A stretch of DNA of 51,299 bases from Candidatus Acidiferrales bacterium (lineage in GTDB: Bacteria > Acidobacteriota > Terriglobia > Acidiferrales > UBA7541). A program made the position numbers and the translations under genes. Shown in pieces: positions 282-43,759 of this stretch (the first letter of the stretch is position 1; every line of letters begins with the position of its first letter). The DNA lies in assembly GCA_049693595.1 (NCBI GenBank), contig JBAVQA010000034.1, positions 1 through 51,299 on the forward strand, in the 5' to 3' direction. Under the pieces are notes generated by a model. It did not search any database. It saw only the letters and a list, made by a program, of their open reading frames with translations, and had not been told where the DNA came from.

Positions 282-809
282 TTACTCTTGAATGTAGCCC
301 AGATTCTTAAGCCGATTGACGAGAGCTTGCGTGCTAACGCCGTACTTGCGGCTCAAATCGGACAGGAAGTCATCACCCAGAAGATCGAAATATTCTTCAG
401 TCTCCAGATCCTCTTCCAAAAAGCGCTTCGGCATCAGCAGGGAAGCCGCAAAAAAATTTGCCTCCCTTTCATCGTCATCCGTGCCCAGGCTAGACACATC
501 GTCTCTAAGACGAACGCGGAACTCGTGATCAATATGGAGCTGCTCTTGCTCGTGAAGTAGGAAGTGGCCAAGTTCGTGCGCCGTGGTGAAATTCTGACGC
601 GCGGGAGCGTGATGTGTATTGACGCCAATAACCGCCTGCGTTTTATCTCGATACAGAAAGCCAGACACATTGTCTTCCAATGACTGGTAGAAGATTCTAG
701 CTCCCTTTGCTTTGGCGATTCTTTCGACCGGCACGGGGGCTTCGGTGATTTCGTAGCCCGCCAGCAATTCTTCAATCATAGATTCAATTCTTCGTCTTCG
801 AATGGCCAT
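282..809 (-). CDS. capP: ImmA/IrrE-family zinc metallopeptidase (CapP-like CBASS regulator)
   Basis: The 175-aa ORF has a HEXXH motif (AHELGHFLLHE). Its 5' end overlaps the upstream XRE gene. The pair sits divergently upstream of a CBASS operon, as in the CapH/CapP arrangement. Confidence 0.75.
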   Translation of the reverse strand: MAIRRRRIESMIEELLAGYEITEAPVPVERIAKAKGARIFYQSLEDNVSGFLYRDKTQAVIGVNTHHAPARQNFTTAHELGHFLLHEQEQLHIDHEFRVRLRDDVSSLGTDDDEREANFFAASLLMPKRFLEEDLETEEYFDLLGDDFLSDLSRKYGVSTQALVNRLKNLGYIQE

Positions 810-1290: not shown

Positions 1291-1530
1291 ATGGCGAAAG
1301 ACTCAAACCACTGCGATGTCGGACTCGATCAGCGGTGCCGCGATGATGATGGCGAAATCCGCCAGAAACGCGGCGACACACTCATTAAGACCTTGCGCAA
1401 AACGTATGGGCCAGATTTTGCGCCCGGTGTTCGCGGTGATACAAGACTGGATACCTTGCGCGAACGCGAGGAGGGACAATCCCTTTCGAAACTTGTGAAA
1501 GATGCACACCGCCGTGGAGGGAGTCGATGA
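1291..1530 (+). CDS. Small hypothetical protein (79 aa) translationally coupled to the CD-NTase
   Basis: The ATG at 1291 is preceded by GAGGA. The stop overlaps the CD-NTase start (ATGA at 1527-1530). The protein is charged (MAKDSNHCDVGLDQRCRDDDGEIRQKRGDTL...) and belongs to no family I recognise. Confidence 0.55.
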   Translation: MAKDSNHCDVGLDQRCRDDDGEIRQKRGDTLIKTLRKTYGPDFAPGVRGDTRLDTLREREEGQSLSKLVKDAHRRGGSR

Positions 1531-2531
1531 ATACGCTCGAAGCGCGCGCGCTAGAAGGCCCTCTTTCAGCGCCCGCAATTACACACGCCGACATCGCAAA
1601 CTTCGCGTCCGAATCGGTCAACCTGAATCGCGAAGACGCAGAGGAATACCGTGAACAGGTTCGACGACTGCGCGACATACTTGACAAGTATGCCGCCGAC
1701 CATCCCGACTATGGCCTTATCAAAACGCTGCTCTCGGGGAGCCTCGCAAAAGGTACGGCGCTGAAAACGCTTAACGATATCGATGTCGCGTTCTACGTCA
1801 AGGCGGAGAAAACTCCTAGCGCAGAGCCGGAGCTACTCAATTGGTTGGCGCAACGCCTGCGCGACGCCTATCACCAGATGAAGCCCGACCAGATTAAGCC
1901 TAATAACCACTCTGTCTGCATCAAGTATGCCGTCAGCGGATTGAGTGTCGATGTAGTTCCTGTCCAATACAAAGGCGACCAGGATGATCGCGGGTACCTG
2001 TTCGCGGTTGATGGCGGCAAGCCGGTTCTCACCAGTATCCCTCTTCACTTGGCCTTCATTCGAAGGCGCAAAGCACAACAGAAGGATCACTTCGCGCAAG
2101 TGGTTCGGTTGGTGAAGTGGTGGGTCCGATTGCAAAAAATTAGCGACAAAGAGTTCAAACTGAAATCCTTCATGGTCGAGATGATCATTGCGCATTTGGC
2201 GGACAGCGGCGTGAGTCTGGCCGACTATACCGTCGCGTTGGAAAAGGTCTTTAGTTACATCGTGAAGTCCCGGCTCAAGACGCGGATCTCCTTCACGGAC
2301 TACTATCCGGCATCGAAACTGCCGGGACCGACCGGAAAGCCGATGGAAATATTCGATCCCGTCAACCCAACTAACAATGTTGCGGGGATTTATGACGATA
2401 ACCACCGCCAGAAAATTGTGATCGCCGCTCAAGACGCGCTGGAAGCGATTTCAGAAGCACGCTATGCGACAACACGCGGAAGATCAATAGAGTGCTGGCA
2501 AGACGTTCTGGGGCGATCTTTCCAAGGATAA
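1527..2531 (+). CDS. cdnC: CBASS cGAS/DncV-like nucleotidyltransferase (CD-NTase, SMODS family)
   Basis: It has the pol-beta NTase active-site pattern GSLAKGTALKTLNDIDVAFYV (GS...DxD) and a downstream acidic strand (LSVDVVPV). It is the first enzyme of a CD-NTase/HORMA/Trip13/NucC operon. Clade C is inferred only from the operon type. Confidence 0.85.
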   Translation: MNTLEARALEGPLSAPAITHADIANFASESVNLNREDAEEYREQVRRLRDILDKYAADHPDYGLIKTLLSGSLAKGTALKTLNDIDVAFYVKAEKTPSAEPELLNWLAQRLRDAYHQMKPDQIKPNNHSVCIKYAVSGLSVDVVPVQYKGDQDDRGYLFAVDGGKPVLTSIPLHLAFIRRRKAQQKDHFAQVVRLVKWWVRLQKISDKEFKLKSFMVEMIIAHLADSGVSLADYTVALEKVFSYIVKSRLKTRISFTDYYPASKLPGPTGKPMEIFDPVNPTNNVAGIYDDNHRQKIVIAAQDALEAISEARYATTRGRSIECWQDVLGRSFQG

Positions 2532-2535
2532 AGGC

Positions 2536-3051
2536 ATGACGACCAGTTATACAAAAACGGGAACGGCTACATTCACCATTATTCATGCTCGCTACCTGGC
2601 ATCGAAGGTTGCAGCCGACATGCATCTCTGTGCGCAATACTACGGCAGGCCCTCGGAACAGGAAATCCGTGAATACGCGGAAGAGTTGGCGCAGTACCTG
2701 AACGCGGGCTATCTCAAAGAATACGAATTCGGTTTTAAGAAGGATGAAAAGCGCATCGTGAGCTGGCGCTACAAGGTTGATGCGAACGGCAATCTCACGA
2801 CGGATGACCGGCCCGGAAAAGTCGTGGCTTATGTCGAAATAGGTAGCGCAAGGTTCTTTAACTTCTTAACGCAGAATTCCGACTTCTTCGACCTTTCTTC
2901 GGACGAGCGGGCGCGATTTAAGGCCGAGCTTCCGGTGCAAAGGACCAATGGCGAACCGCCAGCCGACGGAGCTGGATACTGGACCTCGGATCGCAACTAC
3001 TACTCGACTGGATGCGCGTTGAACCGCCAGACCTTTCAACCGCTCACATGA
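2536..3051 (+). CDS. cap7: Bacterial HORMA-domain protein (CBASS type III)
   Basis: At 171 aa it is the typical size. It sits between the CD-NTase and the Trip13-like ATPase. The N-terminal region (TFTIIHARYLASKVAADM...YGRPSEQEIREYAEELAQYLNAGYL) resembles the E. coli MS115-1 HORMA as I remember it. Confidence 0.8.
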   Translation: MTTSYTKTGTATFTIIHARYLASKVAADMHLCAQYYGRPSEQEIREYAEELAQYLNAGYLKEYEFGFKKDEKRIVSWRYKVDANGNLTTDDRPGKVVAYVEIGSARFFNFLTQNSDFFDLSSDERARFKAELPVQRTNGEPPADGAGYWTSDRNYYSTGCALNRQTFQPLT

Positions 3052-3992
3052 TGGACAGCAAGGTAGGCATCTTCGAAGAAGTGCGAGAATTCCCGGACCC
3101 GGCTGCGGCGAGGCGATTTGCTGCGCTCGTGGGCCTGGACGAAATGAAGGATCGCCTCCTGAAAGAGGCCCGCCTGTTGCTGGACCCCGAAAGTCTTACT
3201 GCGTGGAGCACGAAGCACCATCACAAGAAGGTCAAGATTATCGAATTGTTTCGCGACCGCCCTCCCCTTTTCATTTTTGCGGGCGATGTCGGAACGGGAA
3301 AGACGATACTGGCCGAAACATTTGGCGACGCCGTCGCGCGGAAAGCGGAAATTGGGGTGATGCTTTATGCGCTGAGCCTCAACGCGCGCGGAACCGGCGC
3401 CGTTGGTGAAATGACCGGTCTTCTCTCCGCCGCATTCGCTGAAGTCAAGCAAGCGGCCAAGAAAGGCGGCGGCCCCGGAGGCAAGCGTCATTCCGGGATT
3501 ATCCTGTTGATTGACGAGGCCGACGCGCTGGCTCAGTCTCGTGAACTTGGGCAGATGCATCACGAAGACCGCGCCGGCGTGAACGCCTTAATTCGCGGTG
3601 TGGACGATCTCGCAACCGGCAACCTCCCTGCTATCGTCGTTATGTGTACCAATAGACTTGATGCCCTTGACCCCGCTGTTCGACGCCGCGCTGCTGTAAC
3701 GTTCACTTTCAATCGCCCAAACGAAGCACAACGAATGGCCTTTCTCAAACCGGTACTGGAAGAATTGGGCTTCAGTTCACAGCAGATTCACTCCCTCGTC
3801 GCCTCGACGGGAGCCACGCATGGACGGTCATACGGGTACACCTATTCGGATCTCGCGCAACGGCTCCTTCCGGGTCTCTTACTCGCGGCCTATCCGTCGA
3901 ATCCAATCACGTTTGATTTAGCTAAAGAGGTCATTGAGCGTCATCCTCCAACTCCGCCTTTCAAGGAATCCGCAAAAGGGACGGCGCGATGA
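3048..3992 (+). CDS. cap6: Trip13/Pch2-like AAA+ ATPase (CBASS type III)
   Basis: It has Walker A (GDVGTGKT) and Walker B (ILLIDEADAL) motifs. The ATG at 3048 overlaps the HORMA stop (ATGA). The ORF track extends to 3012, but that upstream part overlaps the HORMA gene. Confidence 0.85.
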   Translation: MMDSKVGIFEEVREFPDPAAARRFAALVGLDEMKDRLLKEARLLLDPESLTAWSTKHHHKKVKIIELFRDRPPLFIFAGDVGTGKTILAETFGDAVARKAEIGVMLYALSLNARGTGAVGEMTGLLSAAFAEVKQAAKKGGGPGGKRHSGIILLIDEADALAQSRELGQMHHEDRAGVNALIRGVDDLATGNLPAIVVMCTNRLDALDPAVRRRAAVTFTFNRPNEAQRMAFLKPVLEELGFSSQQIHSLVASTGATHGRSYGYTYSDLAQRLLPGLLLAAYPSNPITFDLAKEVIERHPPTPPFKESAKGTAR

Positions 3993-4708
3993 GGGAATGG
4001 TCTCTTTCTCAATTGCTGGCCGGACTTCATGACGACATTGAACAACGTCTGTCCATCGCCCGCAAATCATTCAGCCATCCCGGAACGAAGGGAAATGCCA
4101 GCGAGCATGTCTGGCTTGAACTTCTCCAAAATTACCTGCCCCAACGCTACCAGGCAGCAACCGCTCACGTCGTGGACAGCCTAGGACAATTTAGCGATCA
4201 GATTGACGTGGTTATTTTTGACCGGCAGTATTCGCCATTTATTTTCAAGTTCGAAGGCCAGGTGATCGTACCTGCTGAAAGTGTATATGGAGTCTTCGAA
4301 GCCAAACAGGTTATTGATGCCGAGCAAGTCAAATACGCGCAGGACAAGGCCGAAAGCGTCAGGAAACTGACGAGAACAAGTCTACCGATCCCACATGCGG
4401 GCGGGATATTTCCGCCAAAGCCTCTACCGTATATCCTCGCAGGACTGATGACATTCGAAAGCGGCTGGAATCCGCCGATGGGCCAGCCGTTGTTAAACTC
4501 GCTTATTTCGGAACCCGAATCGCGGCTCGATCTGGGCTGCGTTGCTGCGCATGGAGTTTTCGGATTCGACGAGGTCGGGAGCTACAGTCTGCGGCCAAAG
4601 GGAAAACCCGCTACGGCATTTCTATTGGAGCTGATCGCTCTGCTGCAAAACAGCGGGACCGTGCCGATGATTGATGTCCGAGCCTACGCTCGTTGGTTGG
4701 CGAGTTAA
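3989..4708 (+). CDS. nucC: NucC-type CBASS effector endonuclease
   Basis: The 239-aa ORF has an ATGA overlap with the preceding gene. It contains an exact IDx30EAK spacing (QID-30 residues-EAKQ), the restriction-endonuclease-fold signature described for NucC. Confidence 0.85.
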   Translation: MREWSLSQLLAGLHDDIEQRLSIARKSFSHPGTKGNASEHVWLELLQNYLPQRYQAATAHVVDSLGQFSDQIDVVIFDRQYSPFIFKFEGQVIVPAESVYGVFEAKQVIDAEQVKYAQDKAESVRKLTRTSLPIPHAGGIFPPKPLPYILAGLMTFESGWNPPMGQPLLNSLISEPESRLDLGCVAAHGVFGFDEVGSYSLRPKGKPATAFLLELIALLQNSGTVPMIDVRAYARWLAS

Positions 4709-4802: not shown

Positions 4803-4873
4803 GGCGAGATTGTGGCGAGAATATGATAGAATTGTGGCGAGATTGACGGCGAGACTATGGCGAGAATATATAT
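4803..4873 (+). repeat. Five phased GGCGAGA heptamers forming an imperfect ~22-bp direct repeat across the Fic start codon
   Basis: GGCGAGA occurs at 4803, 4814, 4836, 4848 and 4859, with spacings of 11, 22, 12 and 11 bp. The unit GGCGAGAyTrTGGCGAGAATAT occurs twice, and the second copy contains the Fic ATG. Confidence 0.8.
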
Positions 4874-5981
4874 ACACGAACTTCTTGATTGGCCAAGATT
4901 TACGTGGGATTCGAAGGCGCTTGCCCCTTTGCTCTCCGAAGTCCGACTACATCAGGGATTGTTGGTCGGGAAGATGCGTGGCTACGGGCTGGCTTCTCGA
5001 TGGACCGCGACACTAAAAGTTCTTACGGAAGAAACAATCAAATCGAGCGCAATTGAAGGCGTGGTGCTTGACCCAGAAAACGTCCGGTCGTCCCTCGCTC
5101 GGCGGCTTGGGCTGGAGGTCGGTGGACTCACAACGCACAAGGATCGAAACGTCGATGGCGTTGTTGAAATGATGCTGGACGCGACGCAGAAATTTAGCAA
5201 GCCGCTGACAAGGGAACGGTTGTTCGACTGGCACGCCCATCTTTTTCCGGGCGTCCGCACGACACTCGATAAATTTCGAGTTGGCACGTGGCGTGATGAC
5301 AGCCAGGGGCCGATGCAAGTCGTGTCTGGGCCGGTCGGTCACCACAAGATTCATTACGAAGCACCTGCGGCTGATCGCGTCGAGGGCGAGATGGGAAAGT
5401 TTCTCGCGTGGTTCGACGGCAACGACCAAGAAGATCCGCTCCTAAAGGCGGGAATTGCGCATTTGTGGTTCGTTACGATCCATCCCTTTCAGGATGGCAA
5501 CGGCAGAATCGGAAGAGCAATCGCTGAAATGTGTTTGGCCAGATCGGATGGAAGCGCTCAGCGTTTCTACAGCATGTCGTCGCAAATCCTTGAAGAACGA
5601 AAAGAATATTACGACGTTCTTGAGAAGACGCAGGCCGGATCGCAGGACATCACAAAATGGCTAACGTGGTTTCTCGAATGCCTGGGTAGAGCCATTGAAC
5701 AAGCGAATCAAATCACAAGCAGCGCTCTGGAAAAGGAATTGTTCTGGAAAAGATTGAAGCAACGGAAGGTCTCGCTGAATGATCGGCAAACAAAAGTCCT
5801 GAACAAACTATTCACAGGATTCGAAGGGAAACTGACGAGAGACAAATGGATGAAAATGACGAAAGCTTCCTCCCGCACTGCCCTTCGAGACATCGAAGAG
5901 CTGATCGCCTTGGGGGTCATTGAACAAGAAGAGGCTGGAGGAAGAAGCACCTCCTACAGATTAAAGGAGATTACCGAATAG
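4857..5981 (+). CDS. Fic-family protein (AMPylase-type) with N-terminal DUF4172-like region and C-terminal wHTH
   Basis: It has the canonical Fic motif HPFQDGNGRIGRAIAE. The N-terminus (MARIYIHELLDWPRFTWD) is typical of long Fic proteins. Confidence 0.9.
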   Translation: MARIYIHELLDWPRFTWDSKALAPLLSEVRLHQGLLVGKMRGYGLASRWTATLKVLTEETIKSSAIEGVVLDPENVRSSLARRLGLEVGGLTTHKDRNVDGVVEMMLDATQKFSKPLTRERLFDWHAHLFPGVRTTLDKFRVGTWRDDSQGPMQVVSGPVGHHKIHYEAPAADRVEGEMGKFLAWFDGNDQEDPLLKAGIAHLWFVTIHPFQDGNGRIGRAIAEMCLARSDGSAQRFYSMSSQILEERKEYYDVLEKTQAGSQDITKWLTWFLECLGRAIEQANQITSSALEKELFWKRLKQRKVSLNDRQTKVLNKLFTGFEGKLTRDKWMKMTKASSRTALRDIEELIALGVIEQEEAGGRSTSYRLKEITE

Positions 5982-6475
5982 AAGTCTGGGAAACTTGACT
6001 AAAGCTGTAGCCGATTCTCTTCGCCTTCGCAGCACTCTCGAAAAATACGAGACTTTCCGTTAACGCCACGATAATAAGCCCCTCCGGTTAGACCTGCGAT
6101 ACGGACGAGCCCAAGGAGAGCGAGGAAACACACGAGACGCGCAAACAGGGAGACGGATTCAAGGAATACACCTCCATGAATCGCCAAGAAACAGCGAGTT
6201 TTGAGTGATGCCTGACCGAGGTCTCGCGATTTGTCGCAGTGCCAGTTAGGGCCAATGCGCTTAGTGGCAGTTCCGGCGTATAATTGGGCGGTAGAAGGCT
6301 GCTCCCCCCTTCATCCCAGAAGAATTAGAGACGTTGATGCCGAAAGCGATTGAGAGAAGAATTCTCTAATCGCACCGATATGCCCTTTGTACCGGCAGCC
6401 AGCTTGCGAAGGTGAGATCGGCGAATCGCGATTTGCCGGTCTCACCGAACTGAATTCAGTTCGGATGGAGAGAGA

Positions 6476-7051
6476 ATGATGAATACAAAAAACCGCGCGC
6501 AGGAACATCGAGACAAAATCCGCAAGAAGTTTTTCCATGGTGAGGATGCTTGGACCGGAGAGAACGAAAAGGGTTGGTTCAAAGCGCCTCGGACATTGCC
6601 ATTGGTTCTGGCGCTTATTTCGTCAAAAGGGGTTACTGGAAGATTAGATCCAACCAGAGTTTACTTGGAACTTTGGTCGAGACACATGGGCGAAGGTGTG
6701 ATCGAAATGCGGCACGAAGGTGAGCACGCGTATGCAGCTGGCTATGTCGGCACACGCGGAATTCGAACATGGCAGGAGCGTATGAGGTTGCTTGAAAGTC
6801 TCGGAATTATTAAGACGAAACAGATTGGCGGATTGCGCTATAAGTATGTCTTGCTGGTGCACCCCACAACCGTTGTGGAAAAGCTCAAACAGGCCAATAA
6901 GGTTCCCGGCGATTGGCTGGACACATATCGTGACCGTCAGCTTGAAACGAAGGAACCCACGTTCAACGCAAGGAAGAAGGCCAAGGCAGGTCTGAAAGTA
7001 GTAACCATGAAACCGTCAAAGGTTCCGATCCCCAAATCTAGCGCGTCATAA
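6476..7051 (+). CDS. Hypothetical protein, possible winged-helix DNA binder
   Basis: The 191-aa ORF has a GGAGAG RBS. It has a basic tail and a wHTH-like stretch (IRTWQERMRLLESLGIIKTK). It is the first gene of a tightly packed three-gene cassette. Confidence 0.6.
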   Translation: MMNTKNRAQEHRDKIRKKFFHGEDAWTGENEKGWFKAPRTLPLVLALISSKGVTGRLDPTRVYLELWSRHMGEGVIEMRHEGEHAYAAGYVGTRGIRTWQERMRLLESLGIIKTKQIGGLRYKYVLLVHPTTVVEKLKQANKVPGDWLDTYRDRQLETKEPTFNARKKAKAGLKVVTMKPSKVPIPKSSAS

Positions 7052-7053
7052 CG

Positions 7054-7875
7054 ATGATGCCTATGAAAGCGCTATTGCTAACGCAAGATGAAAAGAAACG
7101 ATTCAGACAATCTCCTGTGAAGTGCAGGCGGTTACCGCAAAAGATCGTGAGCCTCGCCGATTTCCTGGCCGTTATCAGCGACGCTATTCGCACAAATGAT
7201 AGGTTTTGGTTCAGAGGACATGACGACGTTACTTACGACTTAACACCGTCAGCGTTACGTTATTCAGATTTAGCCAACCGCGCTAAGGCATTGGGGCTGA
7301 TGGCGGATTTCAAGCGGATTGCCGAATTGAAACTTCGACGTGTCCCCGAGTCAGGCGAGGAACTCAAGTGGGCACTCATTGCGCAACACTATGGCCTACC
7401 AACCCGTCTGCTTGATTGGACAGAAAGCGCAACTACCGCACTCTATTTTGCGTGCTTGCAAGAAGAACGTGACGGTCTTGTCTTTATTCTCAATCCCGTG
7501 GACTTGAACAGGTTAAGTTATCCGCTCAAACCTCGCGTGTTAGACCCTCAGGAAGACTCTGCCATTATCCTTTCTTATTTGAGGGCGAGTCCGACGCGGT
7601 CGCGTGGAGGTCGGAACCCGGTCGCAATTTATCCGATATGGAATTCAGAGCGACTGATTATACAAAGAGGCGTGTTCACGCTGCATGGAAAAGTGTTTGA
7701 TCTCGATGGCACGAAAATAGCATCCCTGATCGCCATACCGATTTTGAAAGAGTCCAAACCACGCCTGAGGAATGAGCTCCAGCGAATTGGAGTGGATGAG
7801 ATGACCCTTTTCCCGGAACTGGAACATTCTTGTTCGCACTTGAAGCGCCGTGAGGGATTGGAGAATTGTAAATGA
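7054..7875 (+). CDS. FRG-domain protein
   Basis: It carries the motifs WFRGHDDVTYDLTPSALR and AQHYGLPTRLLDWTES, which are characteristic of the FRG domain. It starts 2 nt after the previous stop. Confidence 0.8.
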   Translation: MMPMKALLLTQDEKKRFRQSPVKCRRLPQKIVSLADFLAVISDAIRTNDRFWFRGHDDVTYDLTPSALRYSDLANRAKALGLMADFKRIAELKLRRVPESGEELKWALIAQHYGLPTRLLDWTESATTALYFACLQEERDGLVFILNPVDLNRLSYPLKPRVLDPQEDSAIILSYLRASPTRSRGGRNPVAIYPIWNSERLIIQRGVFTLHGKVFDLDGTKIASLIAIPILKESKPRLRNELQRIGVDEMTLFPELEHSCSHLKRREGLENCK

Positions 7876-9053
7876 CGCAGGCCGATTATATCCCGTTCAT
7901 CAACTCGGAAACCGACTGCATCATTGCGACGCAGTTGTACTCCGACGCCGGTGTGATGCGAGTTTCCTTAGAATCGATCGACAAGATCGGCTCTAACCTT
8001 CCAAGCGGGCCGAAACGGTGGGTAGATGCGGCCATTGATGGCCTTCATCACAAAGATCTACTCAAACTGTCTGGCGGCTATCAAGACCATCTGAAGAAAT
8101 TTACGGGATATGCGAGCATCAACGATCCACAGTTTCAGAAGAGCCCTAGCAAAAACGTCACGGACCAATTTGCGGCCTCGGTGCTTGAACATTGCAAAGC
8201 TCAGGCCGCTGACTGGATCAGCATTCCTCAATTGCCTATGGTCAACGATACGGCGCGAAATAAGATCAACAAATTTCTCGCCGAAGGCGCGCAGAACTGG
8301 AAGAGAAGTACTGGATACCCGGGGAAGCTGATCCTCCCTGTTATTTTTACAGACCAAAGGCAGCTCAACAAAAAGACGGAACGCAACAAGAAGATCATAT
8401 CTATTGCAGCATGCTATGCGGCTGGGGCTGCGGATGGTGTCTGGGCTGCCGACTCAACGCTGAACGACCAGAAGGGCTCCGGCAAATTCGATGAACGGTT
8501 TCCCGCTCTGAGGAAGTTCCATGAAGAATTGAATGAACAGCTCCCGGAGAACGCGATAACGGTCTGTGGGCCCTACTGGGGAATGAACCTGATATGTTGG
8601 GTTCAGAATTGTGTCCGTTTTCCTGCAATCGGACTCGGCGGTTCTTACAAATACAATATACCGGGGCCAATACTCAACAGGAGCAACAAACGTCTGCCGT
8701 TGCGACCGTTGCGTCGGTGGGCCAATGCGAGTCCTCAACTGAAAGTTTGGTTGGCAAGTACCGTCGCTGCTCTTTCGGCGAGCGACCCCGCAAAAGCTGA
8801 TTTCGCTGCTCTTGAGAAAGAGTTCTCAAAATTCCAAGTAGTAAGATATGGGAAGATGCAAATAGCCTCTTTCTACAAGGATTGGTTTGACAGGATCGCG
8901 ACCTTACCGCCTGCGGGCCGTGCTCTCGCTCTTTATCAGGACCTCTCCTCTGCTTATGTCTTGGGCAAGACCCTCGAAGCTCTACCAGCCGAGGAAGAAA
9001 CCGCTAGGAGACCTGAACGCGTCGCTCAGCAACTGATGATGAATTGTCTCTAG
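7872..9053 (+). CDS. Hypothetical protein (393 aa), partner of the FRG gene
   Basis: It has an ATGA start/stop overlap with the FRG gene. I recognise no motif in it. Alternating hydrophobic strand-like segments suggest a globular alpha/beta enzyme fold. Confidence 0.6.
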   Translation: MTQADYIPFINSETDCIIATQLYSDAGVMRVSLESIDKIGSNLPSGPKRWVDAAIDGLHHKDLLKLSGGYQDHLKKFTGYASINDPQFQKSPSKNVTDQFAASVLEHCKAQAADWISIPQLPMVNDTARNKINKFLAEGAQNWKRSTGYPGKLILPVIFTDQRQLNKKTERNKKIISIAACYAAGAADGVWAADSTLNDQKGSGKFDERFPALRKFHEELNEQLPENAITVCGPYWGMNLICWVQNCVRFPAIGLGGSYKYNIPGPILNRSNKRLPLRPLRRWANASPQLKVWLASTVAALSASDPAKADFAALEKEFSKFQVVRYGKMQIASFYKDWFDRIATLPPAGRALALYQDLSSAYVLGKTLEALPAEEETARRPERVAQQLMMNCL

Positions 9054-9717
9054 TCCGCCAGAATCGTTCGACACAGTGCATTTGCAGTGTATCGTCCTGC
9101 GCGTACCGAGCTTGCGCGGGGGAAATCACCTTGCAAGAGGTTCGCGTAACTCCGAGCACACCGATGCCCGCCTCTCTGAACTCCGAGTATCGCGCGTTGT
9201 CTGCAAACCGACTGGCGGTCAGTTTTGGCAAGGCGATATACGATTCCGTCGCGAAGGCACAATTCGACAAGGCTTGAGACAGTGCTTCAGAAATTCGCGA
9301 GAGCTTGAGCTCGACAGCGACGATGCGGTCGTGAATCGGTGCCCAGCCATTCAGTTTTTGCAAAGTTCCATTTTTCTTGGACACAACGAAGCCGTTTGAT
9401 ATCAATATGGCGAGATCGCGGTCAATCGTCGATCCGAACACGGTTTCCCCTGCGGCCTTTTGCAGGCGCTTCAATGTGATCGATTGCCCCGATTCCTGAT
9501 CTGGGATATGGCGTAGCAACTCAACACGCTGAATGGGCCCAATGGGGTGATGTTGGCGGAAGGAAAGGCGTTTCGCCACCTGTGCTTGGTTGAAGGACAG
9601 ACCGACGAGATCACAAATACCCCAAGGGAGGCCAAATTCGACTTTCGTGAGGAGACTCTGACTGTGAAGCCACTTCAACACGGGCTTCGTCATCTCAGAT
9701 TCGCGGGCAAACGGCAC
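9004..9717 (-). CDS. PD-(D/E)xK-like nuclease-fold protein (MmcB-like) with wHTH-like insert
   Basis: The pattern GICDLVG...VAVELKLS fits a D...ExK nuclease core split by an insert (ITLKRLQKAAG...NGFVVSKKNGTL). It is convergent with the cassette, and the 3' ends overlap by 50 nt. Confidence 0.5.
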   Translation of the reverse strand: MPFARESEMTKPVLKWLHSQSLLTKVEFGLPWGICDLVGLSFNQAQVAKRLSFRQHHPIGPIQRVELLRHIPDQESGQSITLKRLQKAAGETVFGSTIDRDLAILISNGFVVSKKNGTLQKLNGWAPIHDRIVAVELKLSRISEALSQALSNCAFATESYIALPKLTASRFADNARYSEFREAGIGVLGVTRTSCKVISPAQARYAQDDTLQMHCVERFWRTRDNSSSVAERRVQVS

Positions 9718-10130
9718 AGGACACCTCGCCCAGATGGGCTACAGCATAGTATAGTCTGCTTCCATTGGATCGTAAATTTGTCCACGACGTATAACAATTG
9801 AGGAAACAGTTCGGGCCCAGCAGGTCGAAGCATAGCGGTATGTTCGGTCTAGCTTCAGTCTAGTTAAAGAGGTTGGTTGCACCGCGTGTTTTCCGCGTAA
9901 GCGACACCAGATGCGGCACTTGTGTGATTGGCCCTGCGTCTTGCAAAGCAGGTGCTCTCCAATTTCTTCGGTGTCATGTAGGTGTCATGCGAATCGTGAT
10001 GATTTACGGCAAAAAGCAAACAAAAGCTGAAAAGAGAAGGTGAATCTGACTTGCCCCGTTTGATCAGAACTTGCTGAATCCCCCCGATTTGTCTCGGCTC
10101 CGGCAACTTGTGATTAATTTGGTTTCAAGG

Positions 10131-10175
10131 CTGTTAACCGAAGGGTTGCTAGTTCGAATCTAGCCCGGGGAGCCA
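10131..10175 (+). repeat. att-type direct repeat, 3' half of tRNA-Asn(GTT) (left copy)
   Basis: This 45 bp is identical to 43715-43759. It reads anticodon loop CTGTTAA, stem CCGAA, variable region, T-arm GCTAG-TTCGAAT-CTAGC, acceptor CCGGGGA, G, CCA. No complementary 5' acceptor or anticodon-stem strand lies upstream. Confidence 0.8.
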
Positions 10176-10185
10176 AACTTCTCAA

Positions 10186-11325
10186 TCAGTTAGCGAGCTG
10201 TCGCGCACGTGGCATTTGAGACTGTGCCCAGTTTTGTGCCCCGTCATCTTGAATTCCCGCTAGGTTTAGCGCATTGACAGCCTGTCGCTGAGCCATCTGT
10301 CCAATGTGGCCGTAGCGCCTCGACATTCGCACTGTTGTGGACGGGCTCCATCCCATGATCGTTGCCACAACCGAAAATGGAACGCCTGCCTCAAGCATCC
10401 GAGTGCAGCCAGTGTGCCTCAGGTCGTGGAATCGACAGGAAACGCCCGCGCGAGTTTTCGCCGACTCCCAAGCTTCCTTCCAGCGGCCAATCGGTTTTGT
10501 CGGATCACTGTCATATACGACCGTCACTCCGTCCCCAGACGCTCCATAGCGTTCCGCAGGGAAAACGAAATGATTTGGCTCACGTGTTGGAAAAAGACTT
10601 GCCCAAAAGCCGAGGATCGCGACTGCACGGTCGTTTAGAGGGAGAAGGCGACCCGTTCCGGATTCAGTCTTGCTGAGGCCCACAGTGAGTGTGCAGGAAT
10701 TGAGGTCAATCTGTTCCCATTTGAGCAAGCGAAGTTCTGAGTAACGCATGCAGGTATTGAGAGCAATCAACACCGCCGGATACAGTGAGCGCGAGCGGCT
10801 TGCACGGCAGGATTCCAGCAGGGCAGTTTCCTCGTTCCGGCTGATGGCCCGCCCGATGTCCTCGCGGACTCGGAGCATACGCACGTCGGGTTGGATTGAT
10901 GCCCAAAGGCGATGCTTCCGCAGAATTGCGCGCAACGTTCCCACTTCGAGGTTGACTGTCTTAGGAGCTGCGCCCTTTTCGAGGCGAGATGCTTGATACA
11001 GCGAGATGTCGTCGGCGACGATGTCGCACAACAGCATTTTTCCGAAGTAGGGATTGATGTGTTTCAGATTTGCGCGTTCAATAATCACGCTACGGGGTGA
11101 CAAGTGAGCGGTCTTGGATCTTAGCCACGTTTCAGCGGCTGGTGAAAAGAGCTGAGCCGCGCGTGCTTTCGAAATACCGTTGAAGGAGCCTTCTAAATCC
11201 CGGTGGCGGGAGCGCTCTGCGTCTTTCGCAACAGTTTTGCTCTCGCTCTTCGTAGACTCGCGGATCGTCTGGCCCGCGAATCGGAATTTGTACCACCAAA
11301 CGTCTCCCCTCTTATAAACGCTCAT
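10186..11325 (-). CDS. int: Tyrosine-type site-specific integrase
   Basis: The 379-aa ORF has the catalytic pattern MRYSELR...HDLRHTGCT...RRYGH. It is adjacent to the tRNA-derived att repeat. Confidence 0.9.
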   Translation of the reverse strand: MSVYKRGDVWWYKFRFAGQTIRESTKSESKTVAKDAERSRHRDLEGSFNGISKARAAQLFSPAAETWLRSKTAHLSPRSVIIERANLKHINPYFGKMLLCDIVADDISLYQASRLEKGAAPKTVNLEVGTLRAILRKHRLWASIQPDVRMLRVREDIGRAISRNEETALLESCRASRSRSLYPAVLIALNTCMRYSELRLLKWEQIDLNSCTLTVGLSKTESGTGRLLPLNDRAVAILGFWASLFPTREPNHFVFPAERYGASGDGVTVVYDSDPTKPIGRWKEAWESAKTRAGVSCRFHDLRHTGCTRMLEAGVPFSVVATIMGWSPSTTVRMSRRYGHIGQMAQRQAVNALNLAGIQDDGAQNWAQSQMPRARQLAN

Positions 11326-43714: not shown

Positions 43715-43759
43715 CTGTTAACCGAAGGGTTGCTAGTTCGAATCTAGCCCGGGGAGCCA
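43715..43759 (+). repeat. att-type direct repeat, 3' half of tRNA-Asn(GTT) (right copy)
   Basis: It is identical to 10131-10175. No tRNA 5' half lies upstream. Confidence 0.8.

Follow-up and report, generated by a model that had tools for sequence, protein, structure and literature searches.

Does an FRG-domain gene in a bacterial defence island act alone or as part of a larger system, and if the latter, with which partners? This question is raised by a locus in a 51,299-nucleotide (nt) contig of Candidatus Acidiferrales (JBAVQA010000034.1; assembly GCA_049693595.1), the whole stretch of which is referred to here as the window. The locus contains four open reading frames (ORFs), here termed A, B, C, and D, with B encoding the FRG protein (Table 1). 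An initial annotation of the window described the same-strand genes A, B, and C as a three-gene cassette, with the convergent gene D, encoding a putative nuclease, as an addition to it. Comparison across genomes showed a different arrangement—that is, with B, C, and D forming the conserved module, and A not belonging to it. This B-C-D trio is a real and well-supported module, a new multi-gene variant in which a candidate domain that was already known is the centerpiece.

Each of the four ORFs is a real gene, since hundreds of metagenome homologs were found for it with E values below 1e-60. In the window, the stop codon of A and the start codon of B are separated by a 2-nt gap (TAA-cg-ATG), and B and C share a 4-nt ATGA overlap (aaATGAcg), making translational coupling of B and C probable; A is possibly co-transcribed with B in the window lineage, given the narrow gap. 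The coordinates, both of these junctions, and the 50-nt convergent overlap were all found to be as originally described. A scan of positions 5900-10300 for promoters and terminators returned the same counts as shuffled sequence, and hence was uninformative.

Related loci were collected by means of C. A genome scan with the single C sequence gave no match, and an alignment-based scan was needed, which, when run over 185,579 species-representative genomes, yielded 63 loci encoding a C relative; the window proteins were then run by tblastn over these loci to count the partners. Wherever C was usable (62/62 loci), D was found to adjoin it in convergent orientation, and among the 59 loci having upstream sequence, 54 have B directly 5′ of C, whereas A and the Fic gene upstream of it accompany B-C-D solely in the closest relatives, which are acidobacterial where named. 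Conservation across genomes was thus observed for the B-C-D unit but not for A, and D, far from being an add-on, is the most constant member. The carriers are almost all metagenome-assembled genomes, with ORFs in the related loci called mechanically, and belong to the Acidobacteriota, Planctomycetota (Pirellulales, Phycisphaerae, and Brocadiaceae), Verrucomicrobiota, Desulfobacterota, Binatia, and Ignavibacteriales; B-C-D spans at least five bacterial phyla. One carrier, Solidesulfovibrio alcoholivorans DSM 5433 (Desulfobacterota; locus L041), has been cultured. As a lower bound, approximately 60 of the 185,579 species representatives carry the module.

The three genes also share a history. 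Pairwise identity matrices of B, C, and D from 50 complete loci were observed to correlate, with Mantel r values of 0.78-0.85 that were reached by none of 999 permutations, showing that B, C, and D co-evolve. Furthermore, their geometry is maintained: B and C usually lie within 17 nt of each other, either overlapping or spaced, and in most loci C and D share 14 or 20 nt at their 3′ ends, compared with 50 nt in the window lineage. The reading frame of D terminates inside the codons for the conserved C terminus of C (...LM[LM]NCL), and because this arrangement leaves no intergenic spacer, the transcripts of C and D must overlap. The genes flanking B-C-D are, on the other hand, unrelated from one locus to another, and the trio therefore moves as a unit; overall, it is rare, patchy, and horizontally mobile. 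In agreement with the initial annotation, no named multi-gene system with this gene composition was found in PADLOC v2 or in the searchable literature.

Of the four proteins, B matches a described family. The call of an FRG domain proved sound, with B matching Pfam FRG (PF08867) over residues 50-139 at 74.6 bits against a cut-off of 25 (E 1.2e-20), and matching the PADLOC model PDC-S15 (PDLC04938) over residues 29-266 (E 1.1e-46). The family motif QHYG.PTRLLDWT is present, and at least 98% of 51 trio-linked sequences share the motifs FRG and GLPTRLLD as well as R200, Q204, G206, and F208-T209. Conserved polar residues thus include R (of FRG), T/S (of GLPT), and Q/E (of ER...Q.G). Frg was placed by the Aravind laboratory in the ADP-ribosyltransferase (ART) superfamily, as a possible NADase effector or generator of an NAD+-derived signal (PMC9503650), and a later survey repeats the ART-like placement (PMC12522546). 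Both the defence candidacy of FRG and its ART-like classification are therefore in the literature already, and the initial statement that the domain lacks assigned biochemistry passes over this placement and the PADLOC candidate PDC-S15. With A, C, and D, no significant match was obtained in Pfam, NCBIfam, PHROGs, or PADLOC, and PDB sequence searches with all four proteins gave nothing usable.

C was initially described as free of recognizable motifs, and this description stands with regard to the family libraries: Pfam, NCBIfam, and PHROGs gave no match, PADLOC gave only one chance-level match (E 0.03), and a PDB profile search with C returned nothing relevant. It does not stand with regard to structure. 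The AlphaFold model, computed from 40 homologs (predicted local distance difference test score, pLDDT, 93; predicted template modelling score, pTM, 0.91), shows a (beta/alpha)8 barrel, or triosephosphate isomerase (TIM) barrel, with a helical insertion (approximately residues 56-109) and a helical C-terminal domain. When compared with the PDB by Foldseek, the model was found to match tRNA-guanine transglycosylases (TGTs) best (2pot, E 1.2e-5; 6rkq, 4.7e-5; 2ash, 8e-4), with template modelling (TM) scores of 0.48-0.52 over approximately 410 columns, and 7owz and the DNA preQ0 insertase DpdA (7ui4; E 1.5e-3) are also among its best full-length structural matches. In a viral structure library, phage TGT-like proteins were weak matches, with TIM-barrel apurinic/apyrimidinic (AP) endonucleases among the weaker ones.

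Conservation within the C family is concentrated where a catalytic center would be expected. D52, Q120, N130, N133, Q164, G233-P234, W236-G237, N239, and R282 are invariant in 40 sequences, at least 90% of which also share S117, D199, Y235, and Y261, with D199 conserved in at least 98% of 59 sequences. These residues, D52 and D199 included, are located at or just past the strand ends, where the active site of a TIM barrel relying on two acidic residues would be expected; Gly-rich loops follow strand 7 (GPYWG) and strand 8. The family is rare: in a search of 1.84 billion proteins, it amounts to 313 representatives when clustered at 50% identity. Among the 150 of these relatives that were listed, the proteins are mostly stand-alone and approximately 390 amino acids (aa) long, forming one compact family, and among the 150 matches listed from the deep profile search no bridge to a named family was found. 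We conclude that C represents a new family of predicted TIM-barrel enzymes that is TGT-like in fold only. Membership of the TGT family itself was considered and rejected, since hhalign found no sequence relation to E. coli Tgt. A separate observation concerns the rate of change of the gene: between the window and two related loci (L001 and L008), protein identity is 82% for B and 84% for D, and 68% for C, and this uneven divergence within 7054-9717 suggests either faster evolution of the C gene or recombination within it.

The nuclease signature that the initial annotation had noted in D, with its wHTH-like (winged helix-turn-helix-like) insert, is borne out by structure prediction. The AlphaFold model (pLDDT 88) shows a PD-(D/E)xK core, with its alpha-beta-beta-beta-alpha-beta fold, split by a winged-helix insert at approximately residues 44-125. 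The top Foldseek match of this model is 3dnx (E 3.2e-4, probability 1.0), a DUF1052 structure of the PD-(D/E)XK superfamily (PMC3424549). The other matches are winged helices, namely those of MarR, DtxR, IclR, and Rpa2. At least 98% of 65 sequences retain each of E27, D36, E136, and K138, and a 37-sequence alignment shows no variation at Q148; no family model was matched, even when the 37 aligned members were scanned at a relaxed threshold. Taken together, the model and the conserved residues point to D being a PD-(D/E)xK nuclease with an intact catalytic set and an insert of a DNA-binding type. The DUF1052 family of 3dnx has been linked to DNA-damage repair (MmcB).

Outside the nuclease core, D carries a C-terminal motif without a known counterpart, located at residues 209-222 and consisting of Q212, H214, C215, E217, R218, F219, W220, and R221 (QMHCVERFWR in the window), of which E217, F219, and W220 are invariant. 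The last 15 residues of the protein, past approximately residue 222, are unconserved and predicted to be unstructured (pLDDT < 50). A metal cluster formed by C35, C195, H214, and C215 was considered and rejected, as the conservation of these residues falls below 98% in the wider set.

Table 1. Positions in the window of genes A to D, the C/D overlap, and the upstream genes of the type III cyclic-oligonucleotide-based antiphage signaling system (CBASS) and Fic.
Feature	Position	Strand	Description or basis
CapP	282-809	-	type III CBASS
CD-NTase	1527-2531		type III CBASS
HORMA	2536-3051		type III CBASS
TRIP13	3012-3992		type III CBASS
NucC	3989-4708		type III CBASS
SoFic-type Fic protein	4857-5981		follows CBASS
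Gene A, 191-aa wHTH-like ORF	6476-7051	+	no profile-library match
Gene B, FRG-domain protein, 273 aa	7054-7875	+	Pfam FRG and PADLOC PDC-S15
Gene C, TIM-barrel protein, 393 aa, uncatalogued family	7872-9053	+	AlphaFold and Foldseek
Gene D, predicted PD-(D/E)xK nuclease with winged-helix insert, 237 aa, GTG start	9004-9717	-	AlphaFold and conservation
C/D convergent 3′-end overlap, 50 nt	9004-9053		D stop (cta on + strand, 9004-9006) inside C

The order in which the module falls apart bears on the roles of its members. The five loci without B (L039, L045, L046, L053, and L064) are all decayed: an IS256-type transposase abuts C in L046, and a transposase and truncated BrxC fragments lie upstream in L039. 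L045, on a Sedimentisphaerales chromosome, has no FRG gene and has a 131-aa ORF (7331-7726) between C and D, being the sole locus with intact C and D in which the C/D overlap is missing. In L053, C is truncated at the N-terminus, and in L064 it is frameshifted. D is an intact ORF in all five, and in L053, where the catalytic motifs were checked, both are present. Thus, B is lost first (L039, L045, and L046) and C next (L053 and L064), with D being kept—the order expected if B is costly or toxic and D is harmless alone.

What, then, might B-C-D do? Tentatively, and as a reading that is quite possible yet short of probable, we regard it as a self-contained, mobile three-gene conflict module whose function is most likely anti-phage, abortive-infection, or toxin-antitoxin-like, in the manner of DarTG with a nuclease added. 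In darT-darG, an ART-like gene is followed by the gene for a larger enzyme, as B is followed by C. B, C, and D are all basic (median pI 9.3-9.7), which fits nucleic-acid substrates, and it is from this charge, the gene order and coupling, the structural relatives of C that act on N-glycosidic bonds, and the order of decay that the DarTG-like picture is drawn. In such a scheme, FRG would be an ART-fold toxic effector, using NAD+ to ADP-ribosylate a nucleic-acid target or else depleting NAD+. C, made in fixed proportion with FRG through the ATGA overlap, would carry out glycosidic-bond chemistry at the acidic and polar center of its barrel, and would thereby either restrain or reverse FRG, as DarG does for DarT, or share the substrate of FRG and act jointly with it. 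D would bind DNA through its winged helix and cut it; it might destroy marked invader DNA or serve as a DNA-sensing arm, with the obligatory transcript overlap coupling its expression to that of B and C.

Several points weigh against this conflict-module reading. We infer all of the biochemical activities of B, C, and D, the identity of the toxin, and the anti-phage action, and the prediction that B is an ART-fold enzyme is taken from the literature. For C, the TM scores against TGTs reach only approximately 0.5, with generic TIM barrels following closely at 0.3-0.4; hhalign gave the C profile a probability of 0.2% against E. coli Tgt, none of 40 aligned members matched Pfam at E values up to 0.05, and the CxCxxC...H zinc site is absent, with C392 being the sole invariant cysteine in the 40 sequences. 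A tblastn search with C through 50,697 phage and 72,556 plasmid records gave no match, leaving the module without a direct connection to phage biology. Among approximately 56 distinct loci, about one-quarter have a strong defence neighbor—a share that looks raised but is a raw one, not corrected for background—and many are flanked by housekeeping genes only. The decay series consists of five metagenome-assembled loci, in which assembly errors are possible. Finally, with respect to novelty, neither the trio nor the families of C and D were found in Pfam, NCBIfam, PADLOC, PHROGs, or the searchable literature, but the paper introducing Frg as ART-like, which reportedly is that of Burroughs and Aravind in the Journal of Bacteriology in 2020, may already mention the partners.

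A second-messenger system similar to Thoeris or CBASS would account for some of the same features. On infection, FRG, alone or with C, would make a small ADP-ribose-derived signal from NAD+, which the insert of D would sense, and D would then degrade DNA. Indeed, Frg has been listed among the generators of NAD+-derived signals (PMC9503650), CBASS effectors such as NucC are likewise PD-(D/E)xK nucleases, and the Gly-rich loops after strands 7 and 8 of C could bind a phospho-ribose ligand. Such a D would be inert alone, fitting its retention after the loss of B and C. However, D contains no recognizable sensor (SAVED, CARF, SLOG, Macro, or STING) and matches nothing in Pfam or PADLOC, and its insert resembles DNA-binding winged helices. 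The basic charge of the three proteins points to nucleic acid over a small molecule, and a convergent order is unusual for signal-effector pairs. We consider a second-messenger system unlikely.

The surroundings of the module bear on a role in defence. When the flanking ORFs, as many as three per side, were scanned against PADLOC in the approximately 56 loci, the strong neighbors were found to include type III and type IIG restriction-modification (R-M), BREX (PglZ, BrxC, BrxHI, and BrxD), Avs2, Hma (twice), Shango, Shosta, PsyrTA, SoFic, PDC-S05, and PDC-S31. In the window, the setting is as the initial annotation portrayed it, with a complete type III CBASS operon and a SoFic-type Fic gene upstream of the block. 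On other contigs encoding an identical C protein, the Fic-A-B-C-D block is kept and the upstream system differs: Gabija stands upstream in L079 (2469-6050; GajA, 5e-190; GajB, 1e-161), and AbiEi, a UvrD/DUF2290 pair, and ArdC replace CBASS in L078 (1-1631 and 4952-5629). This swapping of CBASS, Gabija, and AbiEi cassettes at one locus marks a defence hotspot and, together with the co-conservation of B, C, and D, strengthens the defence reading. An alternative is that B-C-D serves DNA repair or the maintenance of mobile elements—a TIM-barrel glycosylase and a nuclease acting on damaged or ADP-ribosylated bases—or is purely an addiction cassette. The AP endonucleases among the weaker structural matches of C speak for such a role, as do the repair link of DUF1052, the family of the closest structure to D, the many loci among housekeeping genes and the several that lie on integrative or conjugative elements with primase, ArdC, and integrase genes. 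Against it, the rare and patchy distribution (313 clusters, and the lower-bound species count given above), the recurrence beside many different defence systems with cassettes swapped at one locus, and the standing of FRG as a PADLOC defence-associated candidate make a function outside defence rather improbable.

Defence by DNA marking has also been weighed, in two forms. In the first, akin to R-M, B and C would mark host DNA, either with an ADP-ribose-derived group or by base exchange of the DpdA type, and D would restrict unmarked DNA. TGT and DpdA are among the nearest structures of C, D resembles a type II enzyme in combining a PD-(D/E)xK core with a DNA-binding domain, the three proteins are basic, and their distribution is mobile and patchy; moreover, type II R-M genes often form convergent pairs with little space between them. 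The decayed loci argue otherwise, with D intact in L053 and L064, where B is missing and C is broken—a state in which a true restriction enzyme should kill its host. Nor does C have a sequence relation to TGT or DpdA; the system contains no methyltransferase or known modification enzyme, and no genes for 7-deazaguanine synthesis are found nearby, leaving this form distinctly unlikely. In the second, FRG and the TGT-like C would, in an NAD+-dependent manner, together place a mark on DNA, swap it, or remove it, the mark being either derived from ADP-ribose or an exchanged base, and D would read it to decide what to cut; we consider this to be just as doubtful, and know of no restriction or defence system with such mark chemistry and division of labor.

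Least tenable is the reading in which A, FRG, and C form the functional same-strand unit and D is an optional part; as a general rule it is refuted, for although A lies 2-8 nt 5′ of the FRG gene in the window and its closest relatives and a palindrome stands just before its start codon, A is absent beyond those relatives, its homologs occur without FRG, C, and D, its segment has a separate history, and D is present in all loci. A is instead a lineage-specific adjoining gene unrelated to the module. Its homologs form a family of their own, with 375 clusters and every source name shown being acidobacterial, and three distant homologs lie alone in unrelated neighborhoods, with no FRG, C, or D called nearby. 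The candidacy of A as a module component was rejected on these two grounds—that is, its absence beyond the closest relatives and the solitary occurrence of its homologs elsewhere. The separate histories follow from the DNA identity between the window and its relatives, which is 84-92% for the Fic-spacer-A segment and 69-73% for B-C-D. In one locus (L076, 2470-5386), a distant A homolog adjoins an AAA_15 ATPase and a DUF6602 (NucC-like) protein, and the A family may itself tend toward defence-gene neighborhoods.

The 494-nt spacer between Fic and A (5982-6475) contains no ORF with database support and has no Rfam match. It is 81-84% identical to related genomes, above the level of the B-C-D coding block (69-73%), and within it lie two palindromes, one of 36 nt (6411-6446) and a perfect one of 20 nt, CCGAACTGAATTCAGTTCGG (6445-6464), with the latter ending 11 nt before the ATG of A. 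The spacer may serve the wHTH-like protein as an operator or encode a novel RNA.

Downstream of the block, the initial annotation had placed a tRNA-derived attachment (att) site. A perfect 45-nt direct repeat does occur (10131-10175 and 43715-43759), corresponding to the 3′ half of a tRNA—the TΨC arm GCTAG-TTCGAAT-CTAGC, the 3′ strand of the acceptor, and CCA—but it bounds an adjoining element rather than the FRG block. The two copies bracket 33.6 kb, with a tyrosine integrase at the left end (10186-11325), and the FRG block sits just outside this att-bounded element. There is no intact tRNA in the window, and tRNA and Rfam searches around the att site were empty; the finding that neither copy lies within an intact tRNA suggests that integrations occurred in tandem or one inside another and that the true tRNA lies beyond the window.

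The trio supplies a defined genetic context for FRG, an accessory domain that is widespread. Two families are newly named with it, namely a TIM barrel whose nearest structures are base-exchange enzymes and a nuclease with an insert, and the conserved residues of B, C, and D are clear targets for mutation. If the role in defence is true, nucleic-acid chemistry of a new kind, involving NAD+ or glycosidic bonds, might come to light through the module, and the cultured carrier S. alcoholivorans DSM 5433 makes the idea directly testable.

Among known systems, Thoeris and CBASS resemble B-C-D in that the trio is possibly NAD+-dependent, with a nuclease as a possible effector, and in the window it adjoins a CBASS operon; it differs from them in having no TIR, CD-NTase, SAVED, SLOG, or Macro domain. 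Type II R-M differs in that B, C, and D include no methyltransferase domain and that D survives without intact B and C. With PD-(D/E)xK nucleases bearing DNA-binding domains, such as type II enzymes, Mrr-like proteins, and DUF1052 (3dnx), D shares the core fold, the E...D...ExK...Q series, and a winged helix. In D, however, the winged helix is not an appendage but interrupts the core between the D and ExK strands, and D is further distinguished by its C-terminal HCVERFWR motif and by always forming a convergent pair with C. TGT and DpdA (PF01702) share with C the TIM barrel with extra helical parts, and C has conserved aspartates (D52 and D199) at its strand ends, but C shows neither sequence similarity to them nor their zinc site, and no queuosine or 7-deazaguanine genes lie near B-C-D.

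The comparison with DarTG, which is one of logic only, rests on an ART-superfamily enzyme being encoded first and followed by a larger enzyme possibly acting on an N-glycosidic linkage, and on the basic proteins and the mobile, defence-associated nature of the module. Neither a DarT (PF14487) nor a macrodomain match is found in B or C, however, with the partner in B-C-D being a TIM barrel, and the convergent nuclease D has no counterpart in DarTG. PDC-S15 is also close, since B matches its models over nearly its full length, and both are accessory genes in defence islands. PDC-S15 was defined as a single gene, with no record of experimental validation found, whereas here FRG occurs with C and D (54 of 59 loci), co-evolves with them, and is outlasted by these partners in decayed loci. 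If the role in defence is true, the single-gene candidate PDC-S15 would become a three-component system.

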